Assembly (NCBI GenBank): GCA_001189075.1
Contig: LFCN01000006.1
Coordinates: 17,605 to 81,604 of the forward strand
DNA: 64,000 bases
Direction: 5' to 3'
Source of the DNA: Parcubacteria bacterium C7867-004
Lineage (GTDB): Bacteria; Patescibacteriota; Minisyncoccia; Phycocordibacterales; Phycocordibacteraceae
In this document: positions 9,624-58,830 of the stretch, one piece after another
Numbering within the stretch: the first letter of the stretch is position 1
Layout of the letters: each line of letters opens with the position of its first letter
Notes under the pieces: model-generated
What the model was told of the DNA's origin: nothing
What the model saw: the letters and a program-made list of their open reading frames with translations, nothing else
Databases searched by the model: none
Translations under genes and position numbers: made by a program

Positions 9624-9711
9624 ATCCTACCTATCCTAGCGTTTACCGTATGAAAAGGAAAACGGCCGCGCATAAAGCGAAGCCGCAGCAATAGATCAGT
9701 ACCCGGTCGGT

Positions 9712-26477: not shown

Positions 26478-26535
26478 GATGATGTCGATAGTATAGCGCG
26501 CGCAGCGGACCCACGCGCCAACATACTGAAGAAAA

Positions 26536-26877
26536 CTAGTGCGCGCTCGTACCGGGTGGAACCAAACGGTCAGTCGTGACGAATGCGAACGTATCTCCGT
26601 CCCCGACCGCAAACAACATGCCGTTGCTCTCCAATCCTTTTATGGTCCTCGGTTCGAGATTCGTAACGAACGCGAGCTGGCGTTCCACGAGATCCTCAGG
26701 CTCGCTCACGTATGCCTGGATACCGGATACGATCTGACGCGGACCGGCCTCTTCACCGAAGTCGACGGTTAGTCGCAGGAGCCTCTCCGTCTCAGGGACA
26801 CGCTCGGCTGTCTTCACGGTCCCAATTTTCACTTCTATCTTCGCGAACTCATCTATCGATATCCGAGGCTTATCCAT
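26536..26877 (-). CDS. stand-alone tRNA-binding domain protein (Trbp111/CsaA/EMAP-like; homologous to the MetRS C-terminal domain)
   Basis: DEFAKIEVKIGTVKTAERVPETERLLRLTVDFGEEAGPRQIVSGIQAYV...GMLFA matches the OB-fold tRNA-binding domain signature. Confidence 0.8.
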   Translation of the reverse strand: MDKPRISIDEFAKIEVKIGTVKTAERVPETERLLRLTVDFGEEAGPRQIVSGIQAYVSEPEDLVERQLAFVTNLEPRTIKGLESNGMLFAVGDGDTFAFVTTDRLVPPGTSAH

Positions 26878-29102: not shown

Positions 29103-30365
29103 ATGGGTACGCTTAAGCGATTGATCGAGTCTCTCCTTCCCCGTCGCGTGTATCGGGCATTGCTGGCTCCGTACCATCTTGCGTGGACCGCACTCATCGC
29201 GCTCAAGTATGGCTTCCCAGCAAATAAGCTCACCGTTATCGGCGTAACCGGGACCAAAGGCAAATCGTCGGTCTCCGAGATGCTGGTAGCAATCCTCGAG
29301 GAAGCGGGACATTCCGTAGCCCTTTCAAGCACGATTCATTTCAAGGTTGGAGATGAGACCCGTCCGAATCTCTATAAGATGACTCTCCCTGGTCGCGGCT
29401 TTATCCAGAAGCTACTCGGCGAAGCCGTCGAGAAAGGCTGCACGCATGCCGTTATCGAGATAACAAGCGAAGCCGCGCTCCAGTACCGACATCTCCTCCT
29501 TTCAATGGATGCGCTGGTGTTCACGAATCTCGAACGCGAGCACATCGAATCCCATGGCGGCATGGAGCAGTACGTTGCCGCAAAGCTCCGTATCGGCAAA
29601 GCGATGGAGCGATCACCGAAGCGGCCGCGCGCCATAATCGCGAACACCGACAATCGGTACGCGGATCGCTTTCTCGCGCTTTCGGTTGAAGAGAAGATCT
29701 CGTTCTCGCTTGCGGATGCGCAGGATATAGAGCGTGCATACGATCACGTCGCGTTTACGTACGACGATGTCCGGTTCTCCCTCCCTCACCCGGGCGACTT
29801 CAGCATCCGGAACGCGCTGGCTTCCGTTAAAGCTAGTCGCTTCCTCGGCGTACCTATCGAGAAAGCGAGCGCGGCGCTTGCGAAGCTAGCGGTTATTCCC
29901 GGCCGCGCGGAGCGTATCGAGGCGGGACAGGACTTCGTGGCCGTTGTTGATTATGCGCACACCCCTGACTCCCTCAAGGCGCTGTATGAGGCATATCAGA
30001 ATAAGAGAAAGATCTGTGTGCTCGGGAACACCGGCGGCGGGCGCGATACTTGGAAGCGACCGGAAATGGGCCGTATTGCCGAAGAGTATTGCGACGAGGT
30101 TATCCTCACGAACGAAGATCCGTATGACGAAGATCCCGATGCTATCGTCCGCATGATGGCCAAGGGTATGAAGCAAAAAACACCGACCATCATCATGGAT
30201 CGGCGAGAAGCGATCGCGCACGCACTTTCGAGCGCGCGTACTGGAGACGTCGTGCTCGTAACCGGAAAAGGAACGGACCCCTACCTTATGGAAGCGAACG
30301 GCGTGAAAACACCATGGAGCGATGCGGGGGTCGTACGTGAAGAGCTCGAAAAGATAGTTCGCTAA
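29103..30365 (+). CDS. murE: Mur ligase family protein, MurE-like
   Basis: VIGVTGTKGKSS (Mur ligase P-loop) and VDYAHTPDSLKAL (MurE-type C-terminal motif). The N-terminal domain appears short. Confidence 0.65.
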   Translation: MGTLKRLIESLLPRRVYRALLAPYHLAWTALIALKYGFPANKLTVIGVTGTKGKSSVSEMLVAILEEAGHSVALSSTIHFKVGDETRPNLYKMTLPGRGFIQKLLGEAVEKGCTHAVIEITSEAALQYRHLLLSMDALVFTNLEREHIESHGGMEQYVAAKLRIGKAMERSPKRPRAIIANTDNRYADRFLALSVEEKISFSLADAQDIERAYDHVAFTYDDVRFSLPHPGDFSIRNALASVKASRFLGVPIEKASAALAKLAVIPGRAERIEAGQDFVAVVDYAHTPDSLKALYEAYQNKRKICVLGNTGGGRDTWKRPEMGRIAEEYCDEVILTNEDPYDEDPDAIVRMMAKGMKQKTPTIIMDRREAIAHALSSARTGDVVLVTGKGTDPYLMEANGVKTPWSDAGVVREELEKIVR

Positions 30366-30381
30366 CTGCTACTATTACCTC

Positions 30382-31323
30382 ATGAAAGGAGATGCATTCT
30401 TTTTCCTCGGCATCATCGCCTTCTTCTTTATCCTTTGGTACGCGAGCGGCGGACCGACGAAGCCGATATCCTTTGCCGGCCCGTACATTACGCCGATAAC
30501 AAACGTCGATACCGTTCAGCAGGGATATGGTGATGCTCCAGACAACAACAGCATCTGGGCGAATATCACCGGTCTCTCGGCAATCGAGAACAGCCTCGCG
30601 GGACTCCAGCGTTCCTCATCAGAGATCCGCGCGTTCGGGAATCCGTCTCCGTATAAGGGACAGGTAACGGTGAGCAGCGCGTCCGGTGCGGGAGCGACGC
30701 GCGCTGACGAGGAATATGTGACGATCCGAAACTCCGGGTCGGCTCCCGTGACGATTTCCGGATGGCGCTTGGTCTCGGGAGCGTCCGGTCGCGGCGAAGA
30801 CATTCCCTGGGGGGCGGTCCTTCCAAAGAAAAGCGGCGTGAACGATCTTGCGCCGATAGTCCTTGCTCCCGGCGAGGAAGCAGCGATCGTAACAGGTGAG
30901 TCCCCTATCGGCGACTCGTTCAAGGAGAACAAGTGCGCGGGCTACCTCGCCAAGAGCCAGAAGTTCGTACCGTCGATACAGACCTCGTGTCCGTCCGCGG
31001 TTGATGAGTTCGATCGCTACTTCACCGGGAACGAGCTGAAGGACGACAAGTGCTATCAGCTCGTACAGAGCACACCGTCCTGCACCACTCCACGAGAAAG
31101 CTCCGGCCTGTCTTCCTCGTGCAGACGGTTGGTTGATGATCAGCTCTCGTATGCCGGATGCGTTGACACGCACCGCTACGAGAGCGATTTCTATGGCACG
31201 ACCTGGCACATATATCTCGAGCACGAGAAGGACCGGAAACAGGTTGAGCTCTGGAAATCGAGTAGGGATGCGGTGAAGCTGCTCGATGAGAATGGCCTTA
31301 CCGTAGACCTCTATACCTATTAG
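30382..31323 (+). CDS. secreted/membrane-anchored lamin-tail-domain (LTD)-like protein
   Basis: N-terminal TM. EEYVTIRNSGSAPVTISGWRLVS is characteristic of LTD/intermediate-filament-tail domains. Cys-rich C-terminal half. Confidence 0.45.
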   Translation: MKGDAFFFLGIIAFFFILWYASGGPTKPISFAGPYITPITNVDTVQQGYGDAPDNNSIWANITGLSAIENSLAGLQRSSSEIRAFGNPSPYKGQVTVSSASGAGATRADEEYVTIRNSGSAPVTISGWRLVSGASGRGEDIPWGAVLPKKSGVNDLAPIVLAPGEEAAIVTGESPIGDSFKENKCAGYLAKSQKFVPSIQTSCPSAVDEFDRYFTGNELKDDKCYQLVQSTPSCTTPRESSGLSSSCRRLVDDQLSYAGCVDTHRYESDFYGTTWHIYLEHEKDRKQVELWKSSRDAVKLLDENGLTVDLYTY

Positions 31324-34463: not shown

Positions 34464-34911
34464 AGGAAATGTGGCGGGTGCCGTCCGTACGGACCTCAAG
34501 CGAGATGGCGACATCGGCCTGCGGCAGTTCGTCTTTCACCATCTCCGGCCATTCGAGGAGAATGAGGTTCGATGGGTCCGTGATGAGATCCTGAAATCCA
34601 GTGGTGGCGAGGCCGTTCTCCTCCGTAAGCCGGTAGGCATCGAGGTGCACGAGGCGCTCGAAGGAGTTCCCTTCGGGAAGCAGGTACGTCTTTGCGAGTA
34701 CGAACGTCGGACTCGTGACAGGGTCGAGAACGCCAAGGAATCGCGCTATCGCCTGTACGAACGTCGTCTTCCCTGCGCCGAGCTCGCCTGAAAAGGTTAC
34801 GAGTGTCGCCGCGTCCGCTTTCGGCAAGAGCGTGCGAGTAAATCGCTCCGCCTCCTGCTCGAGTTCATCCAGATTTATGAGCGCTCGGCCGGAGGGTTCC
34901 ATGCCATTCAT
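34453..34911 (-). CDS. tsaE: tRNA threonylcarbamoyladenosine biosynthesis protein TsaE
   Basis: TLVTFSGELGAGKTTFVQAIARFLG P-loop typical of YjeE/TsaE. Start at the internal Met (MNGMEPSG). Confidence 0.75.
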   Translation of the reverse strand: MNGMEPSGRALINLDELEQEAERFTRTLLPKADAATLVTFSGELGAGKTTFVQAIARFLGVLDPVTSPTFVLAKTYLLPEGNSFERLVHLDAYRLTEENGLATTGFQDLITDPSNLILLEWPEMVKDELPQADVAISLEVRTDGTRHISYAH

Positions 34912-34941
34912 TGTACCAAGCAGTGCGCTCTGTCGCCCACG

Positions 34942-36630
34942 GTGCGGTATTATGGCTTCATGCAGCAGTTTGATACCGAAGCAGAAGACGCGAAGCTCGC
35001 TTCGCTGCGCGCAAGCGAGGAAGAGGATCTCGTTCGCGTACTTTCCGAGAAGTACGGCATCGCGTACACCGATCTGGGAATCATCCCCGTGAACGTGGAC
35101 GCGCTTCGGCTTATCCCTGAGAAAGAAGCCCGGGAGGCGGAGGTTATCGCCTTCGATAAGAGCGGGAAGCATCTCTCACTAGCGATGCGCAGTCCGGGTA
35201 ATGTCCTGCTCGAACAGGTTGAGCATGCACTTGAGGCCCAGGGCTTCATCCTTTCGCGATTCCTCGCTTCAAGGCATAGCCTCGAGCGCGGCTATGAGCG
35301 CTATAAGGAACTTTCGTTCGCGACCGAGAGCCACGCAGGCGTGTTCGATATCGCCGGTGGCGAGCTCGAGACACTGCGCGCGGAACTCATCAACCTTCCC
35401 GCGCTCCGCGCCCGCATCGACAGCGCACTCGTCGCGAAGCAGCGCGCACAAGTCTCAAAGGTACTCGAGTTCGTGCTCGCAGCGGCGTTCGCCATGCGCG
35501 CATCTGATATCCATCTCGAACCGGAAGAACATGACGTTCGGCTTCGTCTGCGCCTGGACGGTCAGCTCACCGACGCATACTCGTTCGACCCGCACACGTA
35601 CCAGCTCATGTCGTCCCGCATCAAGCTCCTGTCGGGACTCAAGCTGAATGTGCATAATCGCGCACAAGATGGACGCTTTACCGTCCCGGTCTCGGGCGCC
35701 GAAGTCGAGATACGTACCTCGCTCATCCCGGGCGCCTATGGCGAATCATTCGTTATGCGTATCCTCGACCCGAGCATGCTTGGCGTTACGTTCGAGTCGC
35801 TCGGCATACAGCCGAAGCTGCTTGCCCGCCTCGAGACGGAAATAACACGCCCGACCGGCATGCTGCTCACAACCGGACCGACCGGCTCCGGAAAGACGAC
35901 ATCGCTCTACGCATTCCTCAAGCGTATTCATACGCCGGAAGTTAAGATCGTCACCATCGAAGATCCGGTCGAGTACCACCTTCCCGGCATCGTGCAGACA
36001 CAGGCTGACGGAGAGCACTACACCTTCGCGTCAGGACTTCGTTCAGTCCTTCGTCAGGACCCGGACGTGATCATGGTTGGCGAGATCCGCGACAGTGAGG
36101 TGGCAGACACGGCCGTACAGGCAGCACTTACCGGACACTTCGTGTTCTCGACGCTTCATACCAATAACGCGGCAGGAACCTTCCCGCGCCTGGTTGATCT
36201 CGGCGTCGACCCTAAAACGTTCGCCTCTGCGGTGTCGGTAGCCATGGCGCAGCGCCTCGTTCGAAAGCTTGATCCTGAGGCGAGGAAACAGGTGCCCGCT
36301 ACCGACGAGCAGAAGAAGACGATGGAGAAGATACTCTCAACTGTCGAAGATAAGAGCCTGCTCCCCGCTTCCCTCGACACGGTCTGGGTACCAGACCCTA
36401 AGGACGAGGTTACAACCGGATATCGGGGCCGCGTTGGTCTCTACGAAGCGATATTCATGGACGAAGAACTCGGTACCTTCCTGCGGGACAACCCGAGCGA
36501 GGGCGAGATAGCGAAGTCGGTTCGTCGCCAGGGATTCCTCACCATGGCGCAGGACGGCGTGCTTAAAGCGATTGATGGCACCACGTCGCTCGACGAGGTT
36601 CTGAAGGTGGTTGATATTCCCCGCGACTAG
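34942..36630 (+). CDS. pilB: type IV pilus assembly / type II secretion ATPase PilB/GspE family
   Basis: GMLLTTGPTGSGKTTSLYA (Walker A), DPDVIMVGEIRD (Asp box), FVFSTLHTN (His box); 562 aa. Confidence 0.88.
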   Translation: MRYYGFMQQFDTEAEDAKLASLRASEEEDLVRVLSEKYGIAYTDLGIIPVNVDALRLIPEKEAREAEVIAFDKSGKHLSLAMRSPGNVLLEQVEHALEAQGFILSRFLASRHSLERGYERYKELSFATESHAGVFDIAGGELETLRAELINLPALRARIDSALVAKQRAQVSKVLEFVLAAAFAMRASDIHLEPEEHDVRLRLRLDGQLTDAYSFDPHTYQLMSSRIKLLSGLKLNVHNRAQDGRFTVPVSGAEVEIRTSLIPGAYGESFVMRILDPSMLGVTFESLGIQPKLLARLETEITRPTGMLLTTGPTGSGKTTSLYAFLKRIHTPEVKIVTIEDPVEYHLPGIVQTQADGEHYTFASGLRSVLRQDPDVIMVGEIRDSEVADTAVQAALTGHFVFSTLHTNNAAGTFPRLVDLGVDPKTFASAVSVAMAQRLVRKLDPEARKQVPATDEQKKTMEKILSTVEDKSLLPASLDTVWVPDPKDEVTTGYRGRVGLYEAIFMDEELGTFLRDNPSEGEIAKSVRRQGFLTMAQDGVLKAIDGTTSLDEVLKVVDIPRD

Positions 36631-46103: not shown

Positions 46104-47339
46104 TTAGAGATCGTACGACCAGAGGGAGCCGTCCCTCTGGTTCGTGAAGATGAGCACATCCGATTCGCGGTCAACCGTCAGTGCTACGGCGTCTATCTCC
46201 ACATCCCCTACCTGCAAAGGATCAACGATAAGGGTTGCGAGACGAGTGTCGAGATCGACCCTCCAGAGACGGTCGGTAAAGGCGTAGGCGCCCTGGTACC
46301 AGTCGTCCGGCGAAGCCTTTGATAGCGTGGTCGGAACGCCGCAGTACACTCCCCTGCCCCCTGCTTCCCATGCGCACTTATCCGCGATGGTTGCGAGCGG
46401 AAGCGGCGTTACGGTGCGGGTCGCTATGTTCATGATCTGCGTGTACAAGGTTCCCTTGTCGACGTAGCTGAACAAGACTGAGGTGCCGGTCGGATCCGCA
46501 AGCGTCGTGAGTCCCCGGAGCGGGCCGAGAAGACGAACGAACGAACCGTTCGCCCGGCTTACCAGGAACGCATACCCATCGAGCTCTTTGGACGCCTTGG
46601 TTGCAAGGACGAAATCGCCTCCCGAGAAGCTCGCGCGTAATTGTGCGAGCGCTGAGGTGAAGACGGTGGCTGTTCCGGTCCCGTCGGGCGCAGATACCGT
46701 TCCTGTTGAGCCGTTGCTTGAGGGCAAAAGTGAGAAGACGGTGCTAGTTCCCCGGACGATGATCTGGCTCAGGTTCTGTTCCAGGAAGTAGCCGTCATTC
46801 TCGCTGCCGTCGGTCGGAAGCGAATACGTATCAACATGCTCGGTGCCGTCATTAGCGCGCGTGAGGAACTGGGCGAATGCTCGCTTCCCGTCGCTGGTCC
46901 ACGCGGCTTCCTGGACTCCCGGCAGGGTCCGGTTGCTAATACGCGTAAGAAGCCGGTCGTGAACGAGGAAGGAGAACACGTTTCCGCTCTGGCGCTCTAT
47001 GTAGCGGACTTCAACTTCGGCAGGCTTTGATTCCTGGCTGCTGGTTGCGGTAGAGGTCGCGGACGAAGAAATGATCACAGGCGGGAGATAGATGGCCGCC
47101 ACACCCTTAGCAACAGGACCATCGGTTATGCGAAGCAACCGCGGAGCCACAACGACCCCTGCCCCCTGCACTGGTCCCACGTCAGTTGAATCATCTGGGG
47201 CCCGATCACCGCTTGGTGTGAATGGTGTGACATCAACGTTAAGCTTCGCACCCGGTGCGAATACGAAGAACCAGAGCGCAGCAACGAGGCCGAGGATGAC
47301 GATGACGCCCGCGATGATGATGAGTACTCGTCGGTTCAT
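46104..47339 (-). CDS. hypothetical membrane-anchored protein (411 aa)
   Basis: N-terminal TM (VLIIIAGVIVILGLVAALWFFVF) and a large extracellular domain with no recognisable catalytic motif. First gene upstream of the T4SS-like block on the same strand. Confidence 0.4.
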   Translation of the reverse strand: MNRRVLIIIAGVIVILGLVAALWFFVFAPGAKLNVDVTPFTPSGDRAPDDSTDVGPVQGAGVVVAPRLLRITDGPVAKGVAAIYLPPVIISSSATSTATSSQESKPAEVEVRYIERQSGNVFSFLVHDRLLTRISNRTLPGVQEAAWTSDGKRAFAQFLTRANDGTEHVDTYSLPTDGSENDGYFLEQNLSQIIVRGTSTVFSLLPSSNGSTGTVSAPDGTGTATVFTSALAQLRASFSGGDFVLATKASKELDGYAFLVSRANGSFVRLLGPLRGLTTLADPTGTSVLFSYVDKGTLYTQIMNIATRTVTPLPLATIADKCAWEAGGRGVYCGVPTTLSKASPDDWYQGAYAFTDRLWRVDLDTRLATLIVDPLQVGDVEIDAVALTVDRESDVLIFTNQRDGSLWSYDL

Positions 47340-47341
47340 AT

Positions 47342-48190
47342 CTAGAAGGTGCAGTTGGTCTGCTGGCTAAGTGGTTTCCTGCAGTCGCACTGGAATTCGC
47401 CCGTTGAGGCGAGTTTGTTCTTTGTCGGCCACTCCTGAAGTGATTTGTCGCATGCTGCCTGGGTGGTAAAGGGTCCTTGCTGCTGTGTTGTCGCGGTGCC
47501 TCCGCCGTCCGGCTCGAACTTGCCGCGCCAGCCGTAGGTTGCTGCAGCCGCTGGTGGGGTGCAGTTGCAGGTCGGATCGCTGAGAGCGTTGGTCGTTGAT
47601 AGCTGTACCTTGCATCCGGCCTGAGACGCGCAACAAGTCTGTTCTGCGGCCGTTACCACCTTAACTCCGTTCGGTATGGTGGTGCAGCTCCCTGCTGGAG
47701 CCTTTACGCACGCCTTGTTCTTACAGATCTTCCCGATAGCGCAGGTTACCGAACACGTCCCATCTCCCAATTCCGCTGATGGCCCGAAGTTCGACGTCGT
47801 ACTCGTATCAAGCTTGCCAAGCCCGCCTATCTTGAGGCTCAGGATGTCCGGATTGATTATGGAAAACACGACGACCGGGGAAAGAACAAGAATGAGCCCG
47901 CCGATCGCCATAGCGATGAGGTTTTTGGCCTCCTTCTTCTCGGTAAAACTGTCTCCACCCATGTACATGATGCCAGCCCGCATGATTTGAAGCACTGCGA
48001 TAACCGCGGCAAGTCCGATACAGATGCGATAGAGATTGTTAAGGAAGAGCGGAAGCGAGCTCGATTTGCCTAGACCCTCGAGAAACGGAGCGTTCTGGGT
48101 CAACGGCACAAAGCTTGTGTCGACCGCAGCGCCCGCAATCAGAGGAGTGCTAATGAAGAGCGCGAGTACCAAGAGAGGGATGTATTTCAT
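47342..48190 (-). CDS. VirB2/TrbC-like pilin fused to a cysteine-rich C-terminal domain
   Basis: Signal peptide MKYIPLLVLALFISTPLIAGAA. Two hydrophobic helices, ICIGLAAVIAVLQIMRAGIMYM and LIAMAIGGLILVLSPVVVFSII, separated by a short polar loop (pilin-like). Then ~150 aa containing >=15 Cys (CSVTCAIGKICKNKACVK...CDCRKP). Confidence 0.5.
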   Translation of the reverse strand: MKYIPLLVLALFISTPLIAGAAVDTSFVPLTQNAPFLEGLGKSSSLPLFLNNLYRICIGLAAVIAVLQIMRAGIMYMGGDSFTEKKEAKNLIAMAIGGLILVLSPVVVFSIINPDILSLKIGGLGKLDTSTTSNFGPSAELGDGTCSVTCAIGKICKNKACVKAPAGSCTTIPNGVKVVTAAEQTCCASQAGCKVQLSTTNALSDPTCNCTPPAAAATYGWRGKFEPDGGGTATTQQQGPFTTQAACDKSLQEWPTKNKLASTGEFQCDCRKPLSQQTNCTF

Positions 48191-48193
48191 AGA

Positions 48194-49192
48194 CTATAGA
48201 CCGAATATACCGAGGAATCCGCCGGTCGCACCGAACTCAACCGCGGTGCGCGTCTCCGCGTTCTGGAAATGAGACCGCTCGCTCGCTGAAAGCCTGAGCT
48301 GCGCAGTCCCCTTCCCGTTTCCGGTAGCACGTACCGTGATGTCTTTATCAGCACCGGCAGTAGAGCCATTAACCGTCCACGCAAGCGTCGGTGGAACCGC
48401 AAAGAAGTAGGCTACCGAACGGAAGGTCGCTTCGGTGTCGGGCATGGAGAACGAGGTCGAGACGACGTTATCAAAATCAGGTCCAAGCAATGGATCGTTG
48501 CGATAGATACGCACGACGGGATCGGTAGGCGAAACCGTCGTACTCGCCTCCCCCACAAGCGTACTGTCGGGACTCGTCACAGTTACGGTAATAGGTGCGT
48601 TACGGTATCGAACTGGTGCGTCAGCGGTGATGGTGGACTTCCCGATACCGGAGACGTCGGTAAGAAGCTGATCGCCGAGCCGCCAGTTGTACACCAAGCT
48701 TGAGTTCGGAAGCCGAGCACCGGGCGAAGTCCTCAGATCAGCGAGCGCAACGAGACGAACCCGTCCCTGGGACGCCACTTGCGGCATTCCCTTATAGAAC
48801 GGGTGCACGGTTGAAACAGGCTCGACGACAAGTGAGACCTCGGCAGGACGAATGACGCGCGTAATACTGTAGGTCTGTCCCGTCGGATCTTTTACAGAGG
48901 TCACTACCGTCGTCTTCTCACCGCTCGCTCCCATCTGGAATTCGGCACCGGCCGTGCCGCTCCCCTCAAACACTTTCGTGCCGTTAACGGTAATCGTTAC
49001 GGTGCTTGCGGAAAGATCGATGAGCGTACTTTGAGGGTATATCTGCACGACCTGATAGGGACGGGGATAGTATGGATTGAGCGTTACCGTAAGGGGTGCG
49101 GCCCCGCCAATATCGAGCTGAGCACGGGCTGCCCCGGGCGCCATTCCTGAAAAGAGGGCGAGAGCAAGGATGAGGCCGAAGAGCGGGCGCAT
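48194..49192 (-). CDS. hypothetical secreted protein (332 aa)
   Basis: Signal peptide MRPLFGLILALALFSGMAPGAARA. T/S/V-rich beta-rich sequence. Within the T4SS-like block. Confidence 0.4.
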   Translation of the reverse strand: MRPLFGLILALALFSGMAPGAARAQLDIGGAAPLTVTLNPYYPRPYQVVQIYPQSTLIDLSASTVTITVNGTKVFEGSGTAGAEFQMGASGEKTTVVTSVKDPTGQTYSITRVIRPAEVSLVVEPVSTVHPFYKGMPQVASQGRVRLVALADLRTSPGARLPNSSLVYNWRLGDQLLTDVSGIGKSTITADAPVRYRNAPITVTVTSPDSTLVGEASTTVSPTDPVVRIYRNDPLLGPDFDNVVSTSFSMPDTEATFRSVAYFFAVPPTLAWTVNGSTAGADKDITVRATGNGKGTAQLRLSASERSHFQNAETRTAVEFGATGGFLGIFGL

Positions 49193-49795: not shown

Positions 49796-51619
49796 TTAGG
49801 TACCTGCAGCAGCGTTCCTATCCTTTTCCTGCTGGATCTTTAGGAGCTGTGATGGGTCGGAGGTGATGATCTGATCCTCGGTGTATGACGCAACAACCTT
49901 GATGGCGACGTGCTTCAATCCCGCGAAGAACAACCCCTCCCCTACCCCTGACTCAAGCAGAAGGAACTTTTCCTGATCGGTTAGATTGAAGGTTTCTTTC
50001 AGCACGTCGATGGTTGTCGGAGACTGCTTGAGGAGCAGCTGCATCGAAGAGTTCGTGAGTATTGGTCTACCATAGGGGCTCCTGAGGAAGTCTTCGACGT
50101 CCTGGGTGATAGTGGCGAGACCGAGATAGTATTTGCGGCCGCGCTTGGCGATGCTGTAGAGGAATGAGGCCGTATCCTCCGACTTCATCATCCACCACGC
50201 CTCGTCGATAACCAGGAGGCGCTGCTTGAGCTCATGTCTGACTGCGTTCCAGATGAAGTGCGTGATGATGTACATCGCTACCGGCTTCAGCTCGTCCTCC
50301 ATATCGCGCACGGAGAAGACGATGAACTGCTTATTGATGTCGACGTTGGTCGGCTGGTTGATGAAGCCTGCCCAGGTGCCGTGGGTGTACTTCGAGAGGC
50401 GCGTAACGAGCGATTCCGAGCCTTCCATGCCGGAGAGTACGTTCTCGAAGTCGGAGAGAAGCGGGGGCTCGACACCGGTAAAGTCCGCATCCCCGGTAAT
50501 ATCCTTGAGCGCATAGGTCTCAGTTATTGCACGGTCTACAATCGCATCTTCTTCAGGAGAAAGTCCTCCGAGCATGATACGGAAGAGTCCCACGAGGTTG
50601 ATGATGTTGCTCCGGAGTATGTCTGCGGGCTCCTCGTCCTCTTTGACAGGGGGAAGGTCGAACGGATTGATGTGGTTCTCGGATGAGAGAGAGATGTTAA
50701 ATGTGCGTCCGCCGGTAGCCTGCGCGAGGAACTCGTACTCGCGCTCTGGGTCGATAACGATAACGTCCGTACCGAACATGAGCGAACGGAGCACCTCGAG
50801 CTTAACCGCGTACGACTTTCCGGAACCAGACTTCGCGAATACAACGGAGTTGTAGTTCTCGAGCGAGAACCGATCGAAGAGGATGAGCGACGCGTTATGG
50901 CGATTGATGCCGTAGAGGATGCCGCGATCGCTCGTGAGATCGAAGGAGACGAACGGGAATAAGGACGACAGAGGCCCGGAATTCAGCTTGCTCGTCACTT
51001 CCAACTCATCGAGCGCGAGCGGAAGTGTGGAGCGGAAGCCTTGTTCCTGCTGGAAGAGCGCAGGCTTGGTGTACACGAGCTTCGCGTCGAGGATGCCGCG
51101 CACTTCCCCTTCGATCTTGTCGAGATCGTCTTTCGAGTTCCCGTATATCGTGAGGTACAAGCCCACCTCGAAGATGTGCTCCTCTGCTTGCTGGAGTTGG
51201 TCGCGCAGCTGCTCGAGATCGCGGTATGCCGTATCGAGCATTGGGTCACGAACGAGCCCCTTCTCTGCCCTATCGGAGATCTGGCTTTCTATCTCGGCGA
51301 CCTTCTTCTGGAAGCCACGGAGCGCCGTTCCGGTATCGACCGGATGGATGAAGATGCCGATATCGAGCACCTTATCCATGTTTATAATCGGGCTGAACCA
51401 GCTGTCTACGAGGAAGCGCGGGTATGAAATGGTGTAGAACGAGCGGGAGAACTTCTCGCCGAGCTCGAGTTCGCGAGCGCCAACCTTGAGTGCTGCCGGA
51501 GCTATAGCGTCAGCGAGCTGCAGCTCCCCTTCCGCATAGATATCCTTCGGAAGCACGGACGCCGGCCTCGGTGCCTCTCCTTCGTTCTTATTCTTTCCTA
51601 GAAAATCAAGCAGTGCCAT
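49796..51619 (-). CDS. virB4: T4SS ATPase VirB4/TrbE/PrgJ family, ATPase (C-terminal) portion
   Basis: VVFAKSGSGKSYAVKLEVL (Walker A), RLLVIDEAWWMM (Walker B, DEAW), plus a VirB4-type C-terminal block; 607 aa. Confidence 0.85.
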   Translation of the reverse strand: MALLDFLGKNKNEGEAPRPASVLPKDIYAEGELQLADAIAPAALKVGARELELGEKFSRSFYTISYPRFLVDSWFSPIINMDKVLDIGIFIHPVDTGTALRGFQKKVAEIESQISDRAEKGLVRDPMLDTAYRDLEQLRDQLQQAEEHIFEVGLYLTIYGNSKDDLDKIEGEVRGILDAKLVYTKPALFQQEQGFRSTLPLALDELEVTSKLNSGPLSSLFPFVSFDLTSDRGILYGINRHNASLILFDRFSLENYNSVVFAKSGSGKSYAVKLEVLRSLMFGTDVIVIDPEREYEFLAQATGGRTFNISLSSENHINPFDLPPVKEDEEPADILRSNIINLVGLFRIMLGGLSPEEDAIVDRAITETYALKDITGDADFTGVEPPLLSDFENVLSGMEGSESLVTRLSKYTHGTWAGFINQPTNVDINKQFIVFSVRDMEDELKPVAMYIITHFIWNAVRHELKQRLLVIDEAWWMMKSEDTASFLYSIAKRGRKYYLGLATITQDVEDFLRSPYGRPILTNSSMQLLLKQSPTTIDVLKETFNLTDQEKFLLLESGVGEGLFFAGLKHVAIKVVASYTEDQIITSDPSQLLKIQQEKDRNAAAGT

Positions 51620-51623
51620 AGAA

Positions 51624-52265
51624 TTATGCGTTGGTGAGACGGATCGGATTTTCGAGTTCGCTCAAGTTGAAGGAGCGGTATAGAAGCTCGATTATCTCTT
51701 CCGTGCCGAGCGGCACCGCACGCACGCCGCTTGAGCCGAGCCCTGATACGACGAGTGCCATTCTCTGCTCGAGCTGCACCCGATGCTCCTCGAAGGAAGC
51801 CTCAGGACCGGTGCTTCCTGATTTCTTCGCTCCGCCGCGACCGAGGAACGAGATTGCGCTCGCCACTTCCCCACCTGCGCTAGGTGCGTAGGGAACAATG
51901 ACATAGAACATCTTCGTCATGATGTCGTTCGTGTCGATGAAATTGCGGATGAACTGCTCGTATTCGCGCAGCTGGAGTTTCATGAGTTCGGTAGTCTGAG
52001 TGCCAGCTCGACTCTCGAGAAGAGCGAGGTACGGACGGATATCCGTTTTCCGAGAATGAATAACGATCTCGACGCTGAAGTCGAGTGTATTGAGGAAACT
52101 CTGGAAACCCTGCACGACTCCTTGCTGCTCGTCTTCACCCTTGAGCGCGAAGTTTATCGACGAGCACATGAGTATGCCGCGATAGCCGTCATTCTTTAGG
52201 ATGACGACGCCGTTGCGGACCTCCTTAACAGGAACGAACGATTGAGTTGTTTTAGGTGCGGGCAT
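51624..52265 (-). CDS. putative VirB4 N-terminal-domain protein (separate ORF, 4 nt upstream of the ATPase ORF)
   Basis: ~213 aa (from the internal Met). Position and size are consistent with the N-terminal domain of ~800-aa VirB4 proteins. Ends LTNA-stop, then TTCT, then the ATG of the next ORF. Confidence 0.35.
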   Translation of the reverse strand: MPAPKTTQSFVPVKEVRNGVVILKNDGYRGILMCSSINFALKGEDEQQGVVQGFQSFLNTLDFSVEIVIHSRKTDIRPYLALLESRAGTQTTELMKLQLREYEQFIRNFIDTNDIMTKMFYVIVPYAPSAGGEVASAISFLGRGGAKKSGSTGPEASFEEHRVQLEQRMALVVSGLGSSGVRAVPLGTEEIIELLYRSFNLSELENPIRLTNA

Positions 52266-52269
52266 GCGG

Positions 52270-52686
52270 TTATCGGCCGGGAGCGGGCGGGTTATCTTGG
52301 ATATCGAGCGAGCGTGCAAGATCGTGCAACCGTCCTCGCGTCATGCCGAGCTTCGCACGATCTTCGGGAACTGGAGCCGCCGGAGCCGCTACGGTCGATG
52401 CTACCGGCTTCTCTTTCTTCCAGAGGTAGAGACGGTCCGCGATGAGGTACTTGAATCCGGCCTCCATGATCTCGACGAACGGCTTGTTGTTGATCTTGTA
52501 GAACGCGAGGGCTGCGGTGAACGCCGCAACCGGTATTGCAAGGAGAATGCCGACTAGGCGCGGGAGATAGAGCACGAGTATGGCGCAGAGACCGACGCCG
52601 CCTGCGATGTAGATGAACTGCTTAAGTGTGAAAGGGCCGAATATCTTGTCTTCGACCTCGATGAACTGCGGTACCTGGTACTCCAT
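52270..52686 (-). CDS. PrgI-family (VirB3-like) small membrane protein
   Basis: MEYQVPQFIEVEDKIFGPFTLKQFIYIAGGVGLCAILVLYL followed by a second TM; size, N-terminal motif and position (immediately upstream of VirB4) match PrgI/VirB3 analogues of monoderm T4SS. Confidence 0.6.
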   Translation of the reverse strand: MEYQVPQFIEVEDKIFGPFTLKQFIYIAGGVGLCAILVLYLPRLVGILLAIPVAAFTAALAFYKINNKPFVEIMEAGFKYLIADRLYLWKKEKPVASTVAAPAAPVPEDRAKLGMTRGRLHDLARSLDIQDNPPAPGR

Positions 52687-54134: not shown

Positions 54135-56255
54135 CTATATTGTAATGCCTGCCCAACGTTCCTTCACTTTTGGATTCGCAGCAAGCAATGCGTCGAACTC
54201 CACTCTTTTCGGAGACGTAGCAGGAAGAGACCGTAGGTATCCAAGTACTGTTCGTAGCTCGCCAGGATTGAGTTTGTTGGGATCAATTGTCGCAAGCTGT
54301 CGACCTGACATATTCTGGTGAACTTCTGCGCGCGCAAGGATTGCCGGCTTAAGCTTGCCAATGTCTTCGTTGGACATGCCACCGATGGTTCCTGCGGCAC
54401 GCGTTCCTTCAAATCGCTTATCGCGGGCATCCCTGAGGGCGCCCTGTTGAGCGCCCGTAAGCTTGTCATTCTTGATGACAGCATCAAACTGATCGTCAGA
54501 GATATTTGCCGCGAAATTCTCATCCGAAAGGAGACCAGCGTGGTCGTTTGATTTTGCAAGCTCGGAAAGATCTTTCGCTGACCAGCGCTTAAGAGCCGTC
54601 TGCGCCGCCTTCTTCTGATCCGGAGTGGCGGCAGGGTCGTTGATCGTTGTCAGTTGTTCTTGAATCGCATCAAATCGGCCCTTTCGGAGCTGGCCCTTCT
54701 GGCCCTCATCAAGCTTGTCGCTCTTCATGAGACTTTCGAACTGCTCAGGAGTAAGATTCTGTGCCATTGAGGCGATACCTTCCTTGATTCCATGAAGCTC
54801 TTCAAGCTGTTTGGTAGAGAGTGACGCCAAGTACTGCTTACTGTCATCGCCAATTACGCCATGACCTTCCTCCTGGTCATGTGCCTCCTTCTCAAGCGTC
54901 TGCTTCTTCACCTCACCTAGGTATTCTCGCTCAAGTTCCTTTCCGGCCTTTCCTTCCTTAATGTCCTCATACAGATGCTTGGCGTCACCAAACGTTGCGT
55001 GTTCCGCTGGCTTCGCTCCGGCAGTGATTCCGGCTGCTCCGAGCACAGAACCCACGCCTGCCCTGCGGATATCGAGGTTGGCCTTCTCGAGCGGACGCAG
55101 TATGCGGTTCACGGCGACCTGCCCTGCCCTACCGCCAAAGCCGGTCTTCTGTTGCAGACGTCGGAGCGCAAACGCGCCGCCGCCGACACCGTAGTTCGCT
55201 ACTCGGGCGGCGGAACCAAACGTAACCGCGCTCGCCGTATTCATCGCGAACTTAGCACCCATTGCACCCATCTTGTTCGCAACTATAAGCGACGCCATCA
55301 TGAATCCGATGATAACGGCGAATACGAGCACGACCTGCACGTTCCCGGCAGCCGCTTGCGCACCGGCAACGCCACCCGTACCCGCGATCGCTTCACCCAG
55401 TTTTCCGCTTGAGCCCTGTGCGAGCGTCTCTGTTAGTTTAAGACTTATGAAGATAAGGAGGAGATATGCAGGAGCGAAGAACGCCTGAGAGAAGAGTTTG
55501 CTCCACCACTCGTCGGCAAGCTTCTTGAGTGACGGTATGGCCATGCCCGCGAATCCTATCGGCGAGGTAACCATAAGGAGCGAGAGCACCACGACTCGAT
55601 AGATGAACATGATTGCCCCTGCCAACAGCACCATCGCGGTTATCATGACGAATATCGCGAGGCAGATGAGCACGATTGCCGAGGCGAGGGGCTTCGTTGC
55701 GTTCACGCCGTCCCCTCCGGTCCAAATGCTGCCGATGCCGGCCCGATCGGATACCAGTCCCGAGATTCCCACGTTAACGCAGGGATCTGCGGGCGCTGAA
55801 GGGTCACACTTCTGGCCTGCCTGTTCCGCAAACACCGAAGCAAGGCCGTTCGAAACGTCGATTATGGCCTGGGTAGCAAACAAGCTGAAGTTCACGAGCA
55901 CGGCGAAGAGGATCAAGCGCGGTATCGCTTTCTTCGCGCTTATACCGCCGCCATGCCCATGCCCTCCTCCGTCAACATTAAGGATGAGCATTACGCCCAT
56001 GAATATGAATCCAAAGAGAAGGCCAATATTCGCTATGTCGCGCATCACTCCCCAGGCGACGAGCATCGCATCTGAAGTGCCGAAATAGGTTCCGAACTGG
56101 TACACGGTCCGGATTACCGCCCAGTTGAATACGAGACCTACGAGCCAGAGAATTAGATTCGCGAGACCCAGCATCGCCACCCCGAGCGGGTACAGGACAA
56201 TACCGAAGAGCCACTCCCCTCCTCCGACGACTGCGTTAATGAAACCCGATATCAT
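54135..56255 (-). CDS. VirB6/TrbL-like polytopic T4SS membrane protein with a long repeat-containing hydrophilic tail
   Basis: ~360-aa N-terminal region with >=6 TM helices and a HGHGGG loop. C-terminal ~340 aa hydrophilic with an internal ~60-aa repeat (EQFESLMKSDKLDEGQKGQLRKGRFDAI vs DQFDAVIKNDKLTGAQQGALRDARDKRFE). Confidence 0.55.
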   Translation of the reverse strand: MISGFINAVVGGGEWLFGIVLYPLGVAMLGLANLILWLVGLVFNWAVIRTVYQFGTYFGTSDAMLVAWGVMRDIANIGLLFGFIFMGVMLILNVDGGGHGHGGGISAKKAIPRLILFAVLVNFSLFATQAIIDVSNGLASVFAEQAGQKCDPSAPADPCVNVGISGLVSDRAGIGSIWTGGDGVNATKPLASAIVLICLAIFVMITAMVLLAGAIMFIYRVVVLSLLMVTSPIGFAGMAIPSLKKLADEWWSKLFSQAFFAPAYLLLIFISLKLTETLAQGSSGKLGEAIAGTGGVAGAQAAAGNVQVVLVFAVIIGFMMASLIVANKMGAMGAKFAMNTASAVTFGSAARVANYGVGGGAFALRRLQQKTGFGGRAGQVAVNRILRPLEKANLDIRRAGVGSVLGAAGITAGAKPAEHATFGDAKHLYEDIKEGKAGKELEREYLGEVKKQTLEKEAHDQEEGHGVIGDDSKQYLASLSTKQLEELHGIKEGIASMAQNLTPEQFESLMKSDKLDEGQKGQLRKGRFDAIQEQLTTINDPAATPDQKKAAQTALKRWSAKDLSELAKSNDHAGLLSDENFAANISDDQFDAVIKNDKLTGAQQGALRDARDKRFEGTRAAGTIGGMSNEDIGKLKPAILARAEVHQNMSGRQLATIDPNKLNPGELRTVLGYLRSLPATSPKRVEFDALLAANPKVKERWAGITI

Positions 56256-57801: not shown

Positions 57802-58830
57802 TTATTTATTTGCCGCAGCCGCGTCGCGGGCGGTCTTTATGATGTAGTACCCTTCCACTCCTTCAAGCGGTGTGACCTGTAGAGCCTCGAATACGCCGCT
57901 CAAGCCTGCGAACGAAGCGACCACTCGAGCACCGTACGTTTCGTAGAGCGCGATACCCATGAGTGCCCGTATCGGATCTTCGTTCATGGTGCTCATGTCT
58001 TCGCTCATCTCGCCCATGTGGATGAGCGCGTTCACGATGGCGAGGTGCGACTGCGCTATCTCGTCGGGCACCGGGATCTTGATGAGCGCGTTCGCGATGT
58101 TCTCGTATGCCTTCGCTACGTCCTTGAGCTTCTTGAGCGACTCGTTGTCGCCTTTTATCGCACGTCCGAAGTACACCAGCTCGTTCTGATCGGAAGGAAC
58201 GGTGTTCTCCGCAAACGCCTGTTCGGCCGCAATCGCGTACGCGCGTGCTGCAGATGCGCCCGTCTCACCTGACCGTTTAACGTCCTTGGCGCTATAAGTG
58301 TCTGGTGCGGCGCTGGTTTCCGAAAGATTCTGAACGCCGGCCTCGACGAATGAGACAATCTCGTCGGTTGTAGGAGGAGTCGATCCCCGATTCGTCATGT
58401 ACTGCTTGAAGAGCGCCTGCGCGAAGCGGTCTGTGAGCGAGTTCGGTGCAGCGGCGGTTCCGGGTATTGAGTCGATGTCAGTTTCCTCAGGAGCCGGTGC
58501 TACTTCCACCTTCGGCTGTATGAGTCCTTGCGCTACCGCGTCGCCGTCGAGCACGCCCTTCTTAAACGACTCAGCCTCGTTCGGATCAGTTCCGTAGAGT
58601 GCCTCCTGCCAATCGAGGAGCCCATCTTGGTCCGTATCCTTCGAGGCGTATTCGCGCAAAAGCTCCTGCGAGTTCTCCGCATTCGCCACCAGAATGTTCC
58701 CGAAGAACGGAACAGGACCCGAAAGCACGTACGAACCCGCCATCATCACGACAGCAATAAACGAGGCAGCTATGATGCGGATGGTCGGTGCCGAATGAGC
58801 CATAATCCTTAGCAAAATAATAGCACGCAC
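57802..58830 (-). CDS. hypothetical membrane-anchored protein (342 aa)
   Basis: N-terminal TM (IIAASFIAVVMMAGSYVL); predicted extracytoplasmic remainder. First gene of the accessory block on the minus strand. Confidence 0.4.
   Translation of the reverse strand: MRAIILLRIMAHSAPTIRIIAASFIAVVMMAGSYVLSGPVPFFGNILVANAENSQELLREYASKDTDQDGLLDWQEALYGTDPNEAESFKKGVLDGDAVAQGLIQPKVEVAPAPEETDIDSIPGTAAAPNSLTDRFAQALFKQYMTNRGSTPPTTDEIVSFVEAGVQNLSETSAAPDTYSAKDVKRSGETGASAARAYAIAAEQAFAENTVPSDQNELVYFGRAIKGDNESLKKLKDVAKAYENIANALIKIPVPDEIAQSHLAIVNALIHMGEMSEDMSTMNEDPIRALMGIALYETYGARVVASFAGLSGVFEALQVTPLEGVEGYYIIKTARDAAAANK

Follow-up and report, generated by a model that had tools for sequence, protein, structure and literature searches.

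A VirB2/TrbC-like pilin with a variable, cysteine-rich C-terminal extension in a Parcubacteria type IV secretion operon

Layout of the gene and its product

The window (the whole 64,000-nucleotide stretch of Parcubacteria (Paceibacteria) DNA analysed here) carries a gene in which a pilin-like N-terminal half is joined to a cysteine-rich C-terminal half. The gene begins with ATG and encodes 282 amino acids plus a stop codon, and its product is identical to an NCBI protein of "Parcubacteria bacterium C7867-004". A preliminary description had placed a pilin with a Cys-rich C-terminal domain at 47342-47800, and this reading is upheld, those coordinates covering the C-terminal half of the gene. The gene and the parts of its product are as follows.

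47342..48190, minus strand: pilin gene with Cys-rich C-terminal extension, of the VirB2/TrbC-like type of type IV secretion system (T4SS) (open reading frame; exact NCBI match; PF18895 and PF04956 matches)
48125..48190, minus strand: predicted signal peptide, aa 1-22, MKYIPLLVLALFISTPLIAGAA (hydropathy; helix 4-21 in the AlphaFold2 model)
47840..48064, minus strand: pilin core, aa 43-117, two hydrophobic helices and a short charged loop, GGDSFTEKKEAKN (PF18895; AlphaFold2)
47765..47839, minus strand: flexible Ser/Thr/Gly-rich linker, aa 118-142 (pLDDT <50 at aa 127-139)
47702..47764, minus strand: module A, aa 143-163, a four-cysteine beta-hairpin, C-x3-C-x5-C-x4-C (Cys positions; strands 154-157 and 160-163 in the model)
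47552..47701, minus strand: module B, aa 164-213, six cysteines (C..CC..C..CxC), one helix and strands (Cys positions; model)
47345..47551, minus strand: terminal module, aa 214-282, a beta-beta-alpha-beta unit (pLDDT 94-98)

Cleavage of the signal peptide is predicted around AGA/A by the -3/-1 rule. Hydropathy places the hydrophobic helices at approximately residues 52-76 and 90-113, with the loop DSFTEKKEAKN between them and a hydrophilic tail after the second, while the AlphaFold2 model has helices at 43-78 and 82-112. The mature protein would be about 260 aa long, including a 140-aa extension that is predicted to be folded, and thus lacks the small size of VirB2/TrbC pilins. The full-length AlphaFold2 model has a pTM of 0.42; a model of the C-terminal part alone reaches a pLDDT of 88.7 overall and 94-97 in the terminal module. 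Module A is present as a tandem duplicate in some orthologues (P0003, P0006, P0020 and P0024). The terminal module is always found at the extreme C-terminus and contains invariant cysteines (C247, C268, C270 and C280) together with the conserved motifs YGWRG, GPF and PLSxQ.

Identity of the N-terminal half

The protein matches the T4SS_pilin family, PF18895, over aa 43-107 with E=2.3e-5 and 24.8 bits, just below the gathering cut-off of 26.6, and PF04956 (TrbC/VirB2) with E=2e-3. At E<=1e-3, T4SS_pilin is found in 107 of 120 family members and TrbC in 65. The layout is also that of a VirB2/TrbC pilin, namely a cleavable signal peptide, two helices and a short charged loop. Together with the T4SS operon described below, these matches support the assignment of the N-terminal half to the VirB2/TrbC-type T4SS pilins, as originally suggested; the match is clear at the level of the family and marginal for this particular sequence.

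Two other kinds of pilin were considered and rejected. A type IV pilus pilin would carry a class III signal motif (G|F/M-x-x-x-E), which is absent from the first 45 residues, and a single N-terminal helix, whereas this protein has a classical signal peptide and then two hydrophobic helices. A sortase-dependent pilin or adhesin is contradicted by the lack of an LPXTG-like motif and by the end of the protein, ...QQTNCTF, which has no hydrophobic tail. Separate type IV pilus genes, for PilM and PilB, do occur elsewhere in the window.

When both halves of the protein were searched against all six reading frames of the window, neither a second pilin gene nor silent copies of the C-terminal region turned up. 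Since no other pilin gene was found in these 64 kb, a role at the tip of a pilus, one of those first proposed, becomes less likely for this protein.

The type IV secretion operon

The pilin gene sits in a conserved, tightly packed T4SS operon of 12 genes on the minus strand, flanked by yidC, dnaA, dnaN, ksgA and uvrD. The members that matter here are listed below.

46104..47339, minus strand: downstream operon gene, 411 aa, with an N-terminal membrane anchor (no known family)
48194..49192, minus strand: upstream operon gene, 332 aa, with a signal peptide and zero Cys (no known family)
49796..51619, minus strand: VirB4-type ATPase, C-terminal part, 607 aa (TraG P-loop domain, E=1.7e-24; NF045971)
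51624..52319, minus strand: TrsD/TraC-like protein, equivalent to the N-terminal part of VirB4 as a separate open reading frame (positions 2-115 of VirB4 models)
52270..52686, minus strand: PrgI/VirB3-like membrane protein (PF12666, E=9.2e-11)
54135..56255, minus strand: 706-aa protein with six hydrophobic segments, candidate VirB6-like channel subunit (matches no family)

The VirB4 gene, which lies two genes away from the pilin gene, scores 366.6 bits against NF045971 (CD1110-family VirB4; cut-off 325), and the separation of the TrsD-like reading frame from the rest of VirB4 is also seen in two orthologous loci (L001 and L003). PrgI/VirB3, TrsD-like and VirB4 proteins are thus all encoded with the pilin, as expected of a T4SS cluster with VirB3 and VirB4. 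The six hydrophobic segments of the 706-aa protein suggest a VirB6-like function.

Fifty-four orthologous loci were fetched, 50 from GTDB species genomes and four from metagenome contigs, and the same gene order is found in them as far as each contig reaches. In 53 of the 54 the 411-aa gene comes after the pilin gene, and in 53, again, the 332-aa gene comes before it; the single exceptions are, respectively, L047, a contig that stops within its pilin gene, and L054, which begins about 150 nt upstream of its pilin match. These two flanking proteins have no family match and no sequence match in the PDB. Pfam searches detected no relaxase or coupling-protein (T4CP) domains among the operon proteins and no VirB7/9/10 core in the operon. 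The nearby TraF-like peptidase that had been suggested as a check was not found: a Pfam scan of some 56 long-ORF proteins detected no TraF/S26-type peptidase in the operon or in the scanned open reading frames of the window.

With its monoderm-type VirB4, TrsD, PrgI/VirB3, candidate VirB6-like protein and location in the dnaA region, the operon is the chromosomal, origin-proximal Patescibacteria T4SS described in 2025 (Quinonero-Coronel et al., PMC12102498). The source genome, GCA_001189075.1, was included in the dataset of that study, and the pilin gene would be retrieved by its VirB2 search. In the one species tested, epibiotic growth requires the Patescibacteria T4SS, a system whose function has been described as completely unknown (PMC11665869; PMC12857230). 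T4SS pilins also rank among the most highly expressed unknown genes of host-attached Paceibacteria (PMC10936435).

The cysteine-rich extension

The protein contains 15 cysteines, of which C57 lies in the first hydrophobic helix and 14 lie at residues 146-280. The cysteine motifs quoted in the preliminary description are all present in the translation; its estimate of at least 15 cysteines in the C-terminal half holds as to richness and is one too high as to number, the fifteenth being C57. The probability of at least 14 cysteines in 143 residues is about 5e-12, given the background of 0.73% in the long open reading frames of the window, and the pilin gene is the most Cys-rich genuine open reading frame there. 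One frame that is richer still, at 1287..1880, is spurious and lies within an AI-2E transporter gene.

The Cys-rich part probably lies outside the cell, since a cleavable signal peptide is followed by two membrane helices; the topology check that had been called for therefore points away from the cytoplasm. The extension has an even number of cysteines in 42 of 43 orthologues, and there is no histidine anywhere in the 282-aa protein, a combination that fits disulfides better than metal sites. The extension is thus probably disulfide-bearing, in agreement with the early characterization of the domain as disulfide-rich. A Pfam scan of about 56 long-ORF proteins and a CxxC motif scan revealed no thiol-disulfide oxidoreductase or VKOR in the 64-kb window, where CxxC matches are limited to tRNA synthetases. 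MdbA-like oxidoreductases and VKOR are enriched among CPR genomes (bioRxiv 10.1101/335083).

Every one of the 43 scorable species-level loci has an extension, of 78-297 aa. The architecture of pilin and extension in one open reading frame is seen in 161 distinct proteins, and 50 species genomes assembled independently of one another carry it. A search for the Cys-rich module as a separate protein in other genomes had been suggested, and its outcome was negative. A phmmer search of 1.84 billion representatives with the extension returned 19 matches, all of them pilin fusions of 200-393 aa in which the aligned part is at the C-terminal end, and the search found the extension neither as a standalone protein nor in a non-pilin fusion. 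A second, different extension of 285 aa gave seven matches, every one a pilin. No Pfam family matched the C-terminal part in any of 120 members, and the extension has no match in NCBIfam or PHROG and no sequence relative in the PDB; Foldseek against the PDB and a structure search of BFVD with the extension likewise gave nothing at E<=1e-3. In the AlphaFold2 model, then, the extension is a confidently predicted fold without a match in Pfam, PDB or BFVD. No description of a Cys-rich extension or of disulfide features in Patescibacteria T4SS pilins was found in the literature; the word "cysteine" occurs once in PMC12102498, with reference to VirB1, and the extension is unmentioned there.

Variation of the extension and its probable exchange between relatives

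The two halves of the protein differ sharply in conservation. Median identity in the core is 74.5% across 122 homologues, whereas modules A and B are detectable in only 23 of these and the terminal module in 35 (BLASTP). At the DNA level the pilin core is the most conserved stretch locally, where blastn similarity extends to as many as 72% of 36 loci, and it is followed by a region with the opposite behavior.

47384..47804, minus strand: hypervariable island, with zero blastn-detectable similarity in 36 of 36 orthologous loci

This island, which the preliminary description did not mention, is bordered by the conserved pilin core on one side and by the conserved downstream gene on the other. 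Homology among orthologues breaks in the linker, at about aa 121-133, with blastn alignments ending at aa 133, 123 and 121 in loci L007, L014 and L011, respectively. DNA homology with the nearest relative ends at 47792 and restarts at 47341.

Mosaicism is also evident from the terminal modules themselves. At least four unrelated terminal cassettes occur, with hhalign probabilities of <=4.7% for distant homology between the four main ones, and the terminal module type of the protein studied here forms a cluster of 47 of the 161 distinct pilins. The identities of core and terminal module are uncorrelated (rho -0.05). When cassette type was mapped onto a 42-taxon VirB4 tree, 23 changes were needed, compared with 23.8 for shuffled labels, so that the distribution looks random; the trees are neighbor-joining trees without support values and the cassettes were classed by single-linkage BLAST clustering, which makes the count of exchange events approximate. 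A foreign origin of the cassette is not apparent from composition, since its GC content of 0.585 matches the 0.58-0.59 of the two flanking genes; that of the pilin core is 0.53. From these comparisons, the extension reads as a replaceable cassette set on a conserved core and among conserved flanking genes. The most likely route of exchange would be recombination within the conserved flanks.

A proposed decorated pilus subunit and its alternatives

We lean towards the view that the protein is the decorated subunit of a pilus or stalk, with an exchangeable domain that would recognize a target. The precursor would be inserted via Sec and YidC and would then lose its signal peptide, leaving the two-helix hairpin in the membrane with both ends extracellular. 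The 140-aa C-terminal region would fold outside as three small modules with seven disulfides, tethered by the flexible linker of about 25 residues. A machine containing VirB4, TrsD, PrgI and VirB6-like proteins would then pull the subunits into a pilus or a short stalk. Every subunit would show its Cys-rich region on the filament surface, because pilin termini face outward in conjugative pili; the N- and C-terminal parts of F pilin, for example, sit on the pilus exterior (PMC7555446). The likeliest role of such a structure would be recognition of, or adhesion to, the surface of a host or target cell, with the cassette setting the specificity. A bolder version, that the filament is coated along its full length by disulfide-knotted receptor-binding cassettes that are exchanged horizontally between species, through recombination in the pilin core and the downstream gene, and set the choice of host cell, is possible but doubtful.

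An unlikely alternative that nonetheless deserves some weight is that the protein is a membrane-anchored surface protein that forms no filament, the hairpin being an anchor or a channel-proximal T4SS component. The Cys-rich region, borne on the linker at the cell surface, would then make contact with a partner cell or with the envelope of its own cell, and no polymerization would be involved. Monoderm (FATA-type) T4SSs, the kin of the Patescibacteria VirB4, are generally without pili (PMC12102498; PMC12857230), which counts against a decorated pilus, as does the Pfam score of this protein marginally under the gathering threshold. In addition, helical packing could suffer from a bulky C-terminal domain, the pTM of 0.42 shows that the model treats the two halves as separate units, and VirB2 of Gram-negative systems is needed for substrate transfer as well (PMC12857230). 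However, the exceptional conservation of the core, in protein and in DNA, is better explained by tight subunit-subunit or subunit-machine packing than by a simple anchor, the outward termini of VirB2-family filaments permit a C-terminal appendage topologically, and the position of the pilin gene in the T4SS operon is fixed in all 54 fetched loci.

Removal of the C-terminal region after export is improbable, whether the region is viewed as a pro-region or as a soluble disulfide-rich effector, toxin or signal. C-terminal trimming before assembly is established for the TrbC pilin of IncP/RP4 (Eisenbrandt et al. 1999), and here the disordered linker, in which orthologue homology breaks exactly, would be open to a protease. 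The TraF/S26-type peptidase was nevertheless not found in the operon or the scanned open reading frames, and no instance of the extension as a gene of its own, or joined to a non-pilin, turned up; its occurrence only on pilins suggests that it functions while tethered. With genomes of only about 0.7 Mb, keeping a confidently predicted folded domain of 78-297 aa, with an even Cys count, in every scorable orthologue would also be expensive if it were just a pro-peptide.

We give still less credence to the idea that the cassette is mainly a shield or decoy without a specific ligand, its turnover being driven by pilus-using phages, predators or host defences. The extreme and phylogenetically unstructured turnover of unrelated cassettes does recall that of surface antigens in an arms race, and conjugative pili are classic phage receptors. 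The conserved non-Cys motifs within a cassette type (YGWRG, GPF and PLSxQ) suggest a functional surface rather than bulk, and the shield reading is compatible with a binding role as well. Lastly, a false fusion created by a frameshift or assembly error, or a generic secreted Cys-rich protein unrelated to pilins, might be suspected from the slightly low Pfam score but can be rejected on the family matches (107 of 120 relatives), the fixed place of the gene in the T4SS operon and the recurrence of the one-ORF architecture across independently assembled genomes.

Relation to other pilins and variable surface proteins

The decorated subunit proposed here has much in common with the VirB2/TrbC/TraA pilins (PF04956; Agrobacterium T-pilus, RP4 and F), which have the same signal peptide, hydrophobic hairpin and short charged loop, are related by HMM similarity, and are likewise encoded beside VirB3/VirB4 homologues. 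Both of their termini are extracytoplasmic, on the outside of the filament, as proposed for the Parcubacteria pilin. Known members are approximately 70-120 aa when mature and have no appended domain, whereas the Parcubacteria pilin is more than twice that size and bears a 14-Cys extension of three modules. The Parcubacteria host is also monoderm and, unlike the VirB2/TrbC/TraA systems, its operon has no detected VirB7/9/10, relaxase or coupling protein; nor was cyclization or a TraF-type peptidase found for its pilin. To our knowledge, VirB2-type filaments offer no precedent for a folded domain of about 15 kDa on each subunit, and we know of no VirB2-family pilus of the conjugative type in which the major subunit is a modular adhesin. 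Fusions of peptides to the C-terminus of F pilin, engineered by Rondot and coworkers in 1998, were reportedly displayed on F pili, and provide a precedent for a tolerated, exposed C-terminal appendage on a VirB2-family pilin. Those fusions are short artificial epitopes, in contrast to the natural, predicted folded domain of 78-297 aa that all of the Parcubacteria orthologues carry.

Closer relatives are the published Patescibacteria VirB2-like pilins (PF18895; PMC12102498; Wang et al. 2023, PMC10633639), with which the present protein shares its domain family and a chromosomal T4SS. Those pilins are described as small, and their variability is ascribed to 2-11 divergent pilin genes in tandem, an arrangement found mainly in Saccharimonadia and Microgenomatia, whereas the Parcubacteria locus has one pilin gene in the window and places the variability in the fused C-terminal cassette. 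The Bartonella Trw and Anaplasma T4SSs, with their variable VirB2 paralogues, also diversify a surface-exposed pilus subunit, presumably for host-cell binding or evasion (PMC12102498). They do so by duplicating whole small pilins, and the Parcubacteria pilin does so by domain replacement on a conserved core.

Certain unrelated systems resemble this last arrangement. The receptor-binding C-termini of phage tail fibers and the C-termini of polymorphic toxins are exchanged modules attached to a conserved N-terminal assembly part, and the type IV pilin of Neisseria, PilE, has a hypervariable, disulfide-bonded C-terminal region. These share with the Parcubacteria pilin a sharp homology breakpoint at the module junction, but they belong to unrelated families and machines, and the extension shows no likeness to phage proteins by sequence (PHROG) or by fold (BFVD).

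If the bolder version above holds, the range of host cells open to an ultrasmall episymbiont for attachment or feeding would depend on cassette identity rather than species phylogeny. The 140-aa variable region is the probable contact surface with the partner cell, and the cassettes make the host specificity of uncultured Paceibacteria testable. The fused domain, predicted to be folded, also widens the range of the VirB2 family, whose members are usually regarded as short helical peptides. Each cassette type would add a compact and probably disulfide-rich fold, predicted with confidence, that is new to Pfam, PDB and BFVD. Annotation pipelines call these proteins "pilin" or "hypothetical", and the additional domains are thereby overlooked.

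A VirB2-family pilin in a Patescibacteria T4SS operon

The pilin ORF (47342..48190, minus strand; 282 aa, ATG start) encodes a protein identical to the NCBI entry [quoted passage not shown], from a genome that a published survey placed in Paceibacteria. The protein scores 24.8 bits (E=2.3e-5) with PF18895 (T4SS_pilin), whose cut-off is 26.6, and E=2e-3 with PF04956 (TrbC/VirB2). When 5.8 billion proteins were searched, 359 relatives came up; the 120 listed are mostly 260-420 aa long and come from Patescibacteria/Paceibacterota metagenomes, and several are already named "pilin" by NCBI. Of 120 relatives, PF18895 is matched by 107 and PF04956 by 65. AlphaFold2, given a 120-sequence alignment, predicts a hairpin of two helices (residues 43-78 and 82-112). 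Together with the place of the gene in a type IV secretion system (T4SS) operon, these matches bear out the preliminary description of the N-terminal half as pilin-like (VirB2/TrbC-type), and the protein is a VirB2-family pilin of a Patescibacteria T4SS. Readings as a type IV pilus pilin or a sortase pilin were rejected, the defining motifs being absent in each case. Separate type IV pilus genes for PilM (25395..26639, minus strand; PF11104, E=4.4e-33) and a PilB-type T2SSE ATPase (34792..36627, plus strand; E=1.9e-103) are present in the window, and so the organism owns a type IV pilus system apart from the T4SS pilin.

The pilin gene is the second to last in a tightly packed minus-strand operon, with intergenic gaps mostly of 1-60 nt. 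The operon lies between ksgA and uvrD at one end and yidC, dnaA and dnaN at the opposite end.

Genes of the T4SS operon, in order of transcription
Gene 1, 57802..58830, minus strand: 342 aa, weak TSP3 repeat match
Gene 2: 513 aa, no family
Gene 3: 706 aa, six hydrophobic segments, possibly VirB6-like
Gene 4: 297 aa, no family
Gene 5: 141 aa, no family
Gene 6: PrgI/VirB3 (PF12666)
Gene 7, 51624..52319, minus strand: TrsD-like, the N-terminal part of VirB4
Gene 8, 49796..51619, minus strand: VirB4 ATPase (NF045971, 366.6 bits, over the cut-off)
Gene 9: 177 aa, membrane protein
Gene 10, 48194..49192, minus strand: 332 aa, secreted
Gene 11, 47342..48190, minus strand: pilin
Gene 12, 46104..47339, minus strand: 411 aa, membrane-anchored

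Quinonero-Coronel et al. (2025; PMC12102498) surveyed Patescibacteria T4SSs that consist of VirB4, TrsD, PrgI/VirB3, VirB6 and VirB2-like pilins, lack a relaxase and lie close to dnaA, dnaN, ksgA and rnpA. The operon is this chromosomal, origin-proximal T4SS, and the pilin with it belongs to a known system; the source genome was part of the survey dataset, and the pilin gene would satisfy the VirB2 search criteria used there. Related T4SS genes are essential to the epibiotic growth of Southlakia epibionticum (PMC10633639), and the function of Patescibacteria T4SSs has been described as completely unknown (PMC11665869).

Several other operon products deserve comment. The 342-aa protein has an N-terminal membrane segment and a sub-cut-off match (E=3.3e-4) to PF18884, the bacterial thrombospondin type 3 calcium-binding repeat. 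VirB4 is split over two ORFs 4 nt apart, a 231-aa TrsD/TraC-like N-terminal part, corresponding to the "TrsD" of the survey (PMC12102498), and a 607-aa ATPase; the same split in two unrelated metagenome contigs (L001 and L003) shows that it is genuine and not a frameshift. The 332-aa and 411-aa genes stand on either side of the pilin gene in almost all orthologous loci, at 31-73% identity. Their products, the first secreted and devoid of cysteine and the second with one N-terminal membrane anchor, have no match in Pfam, NCBIfam, PHROGs or PDB sequences, and are candidates for pilus-associated or assembly factors.

A cysteine-rich extension confined to the pilin

Hydropathy of the pilin indicates a signal peptide (residues 1-22) and two hydrophobic helices (about 52-76 and about 90-113) with the loop DSFTEKKEAKN between them; the rest of the protein is a hydrophilic tail. 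With the signal peptide cleaved and two membrane spans, the C-terminus returns to the outside of the cell, so the cysteine-rich part is extracytoplasmic rather than cytoplasmic, in keeping with the surface location first proposed. The preliminary description had counted at least 15 cysteines in the C-terminal half; its cysteine-rich character is confirmed, while the real number there is 14 (residues 146 to 280), the remaining one of the protein's 15 lying in the first hydrophobic helix. Against a background of 0.73% cysteine in the other long ORFs of the window, at least 14 in 143 residues has a binomial probability of about 5e-12. The pilin has no histidine. The VirB4 ATPase has no cysteine, and the other operon proteins have 0-4 each, against the pilin's 15; an ORF with 5.6% cysteine at 1287..1880 (minus strand) is a spurious frame within an AI-2E family transporter gene (1250..2317, minus strand).

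Modelled alone, residues 140-282 give a mean pLDDT of 88.7, rising to 94-97 over the last 60 residues, so that the extension is confidently predicted as a folded region behind a flexible-looking linker.

Parts of the extension
Linker, aa ~118-142: Ser/Thr/Gly-rich, pLDDT <50 for aa 127-139
Module A, aa 143-163: four-cysteine beta-hairpin
Module B, aa 164-213: six-cysteine helix-and-strand module
Terminal module, aa 214-282: four-cysteine beta-beta-alpha-beta, with conserved YGWRG, GPF and PLSxQ

Of 54 orthologous loci fetched, 50 came from scanning GTDB species genomes and four from metagenome contigs; all keep the order prgI - trsD - virB4 - (177 aa) - 332 aa - pilin - 411 aa as far as the contigs reach. 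The extension is clade-wide: in 43 complete, scorable orthologues it measures 78-297 aa (median 186), and in 42 of these it has an even number of cysteines, the signature of fully paired disulfides. MdbA-like oxidoreductases and VKOR, reportedly enriched in CPR bacteria, could form such bonds (bioRxiv 10.1101/335083); neither is encoded in the 64-kb window of a genome of about 0.7-0.8 Mb.

A stand-alone form of the module, a possibility raised in the preliminary description, was not found. An exhaustive phmmer search of 1.84 billion cluster representatives with the extension alone returned 19 proteins, all of 200-393 aa with the match at the C-terminus and hence all pilin fusions, and a different, 285-aa extension from an orthologue matched just seven proteins, every one a pilin. 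At the sensitivity of these searches, the extension modules appear only in this pilin.

The extension behaves as an exchangeable cassette

Across 122 relatives the two-helix core (aa 43-117) has a median identity of 74.5% to the query, whereas modules A and B are detectable in 23 and the terminal module in 35, the two assorting independently. In proteins that have the terminal module, identity to the query over that module is uncorrelated with identity over the core (Spearman rho -0.05), and one relative is 34% identical in the core and 68% in the terminal module. When 161 distinct pilins were grouped by their last 72 residues with single-linkage clustering, four main terminal cassettes (n=47, 46, 32 and 15) plus singletons emerged, and profile-profile comparison found no relationship between the four (probability <=4.7%). 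On a neighbour-joining VirB4 tree without support values (42 taxa, 77-93% identical), cassette type requires 23 parsimony changes against a mean of 23.8 for shuffled labels, and 39% of the shuffles required 23 changes or fewer. On a core tree of the same kind, 56 changes were observed against 69.9 for shuffled labels and a possible minimum of 3.

The same behavior is seen at the DNA level. In the closest relative (L007; VirB4 93% identical), homology spans the 332-aa gene and the pilin core, ends at window position 47792 (aa 133) and restarts at 47341, beside the start codon of the 411-aa gene. By blastn against 36 loci, the share of loci that align is highest in the pilin core (at most 72%), falls to zero over 47384..47804 and recovers in the downstream gene; the segment 47342..47800 singled out in the preliminary description coincides almost exactly with this hypervariable island. 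Close relatives thus carry unrelated cassettes in its place, and the extension, judged from these comparisons, behaves as an exchangeable cassette. Its GC content (0.585) is at the level of the two flanking genes, with no compositional anomaly, and no silent cassette copies were found within the 64-kb window.

Proposed role of the extension

No description of a cysteine-rich extension fused to the pilin, of its modules, of its confinement to pilins or of its cassette-like exchange was found in the survey (PMC12102498), a 2025 T4SS review (PMC12857230), the Southlakia paper (PMC10633639) or targeted searches of open-access and bioRxiv literature. Published variability of Patescibacteria pilins takes the form of tandem arrays of small paralogues (PMC12102498), whereas here it lies inside a single gene.

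We infer display, polymerization and binding by the extension along the following lines. Seven disulfides would form outside the cell, and the subunit would be extracted into a pilus or short stalk by VirB4, TrsD, PrgI and the VirB6-like protein. The N- and C-terminal parts of F-pilin are on the filament exterior (PMC7555446), and by analogy every subunit would display its cassette on the filament surface. The cassette might then bind a partner cell and set specificity, and cassettes could spread through homologous recombination in the conserved flanks. The role as a tip suggested in the preliminary description is unlikely, if meant as tip-only, because this is the single pilin gene found in the operon and in the 64-kb window. 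Judged roughly from the geometry of the F-pilus, a domain of 15 kDa on each subunit would barely fit sterically. T4SS pilins rank among the most strongly expressed genes without known function in methanogen-attached Paceibacteria (PMC10936435), in line with an abundant structure at the surface. To a T4SS specialist, VirB2 subunits that each carry a folded domain would come as a surprise. The extension is also a specific candidate for what sets host specificity in this uncultured group.

The protein might instead be a non-polymerizing anchor or channel component, as could be expected from the usual lack of pili in monoderm T4SSs; so strongly conserved a core speaks for tight packing, and we consider this alternative unlikely, though a serious one. 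It is less probable still that the extension is removed after export, like RP4 TrbC in its processing, or set free as a soluble factor: the operon and the scanned ORFs of the window yielded no peptidase, the searches turned up no free-standing module, and the extension would be a costly pro-peptide. A shield or decoy without a ligand, driven by phage pressure, would be compatible with a binding role. It seems very improbable; conserved motifs other than the cysteines in each cassette type hint at a functional surface. An artefact or a generic secreted protein is hardly credible given the PF18895 matches in 107 of 120 relatives, the shared gene order of 54 loci and the presence of the extension in 43 scorable orthologues.

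Other observations

A class I aminoacyl-tRNA synthetase of the Ile/Val/Leu type (6237..9626, minus strand; 1130 aa; tRNA-synt_1 and Anticodon_1) carries a histidine phosphatase domain (PF00300 His_Phos_1, E=3.7e-35) inserted in the middle of its catalytic region at residues 506-672, which is unusual for such an enzyme. Directly after a Mur ligase gene lies a gene for a 321-aa Lamin Tail Domain protein (30358..31320, plus strand; PF00932, E=7.7e-11), possibly another surface protein. Many MAGs from automated binning (loci L006, L007, L013, L015 and others) bear the title "uncultured Candidatus Saccharibacteria bacterium"; they contain a Paceibacteria-type operon with VirB4 86-93% identical to that of the window, and these class-level titles are therefore probably mislabelled.
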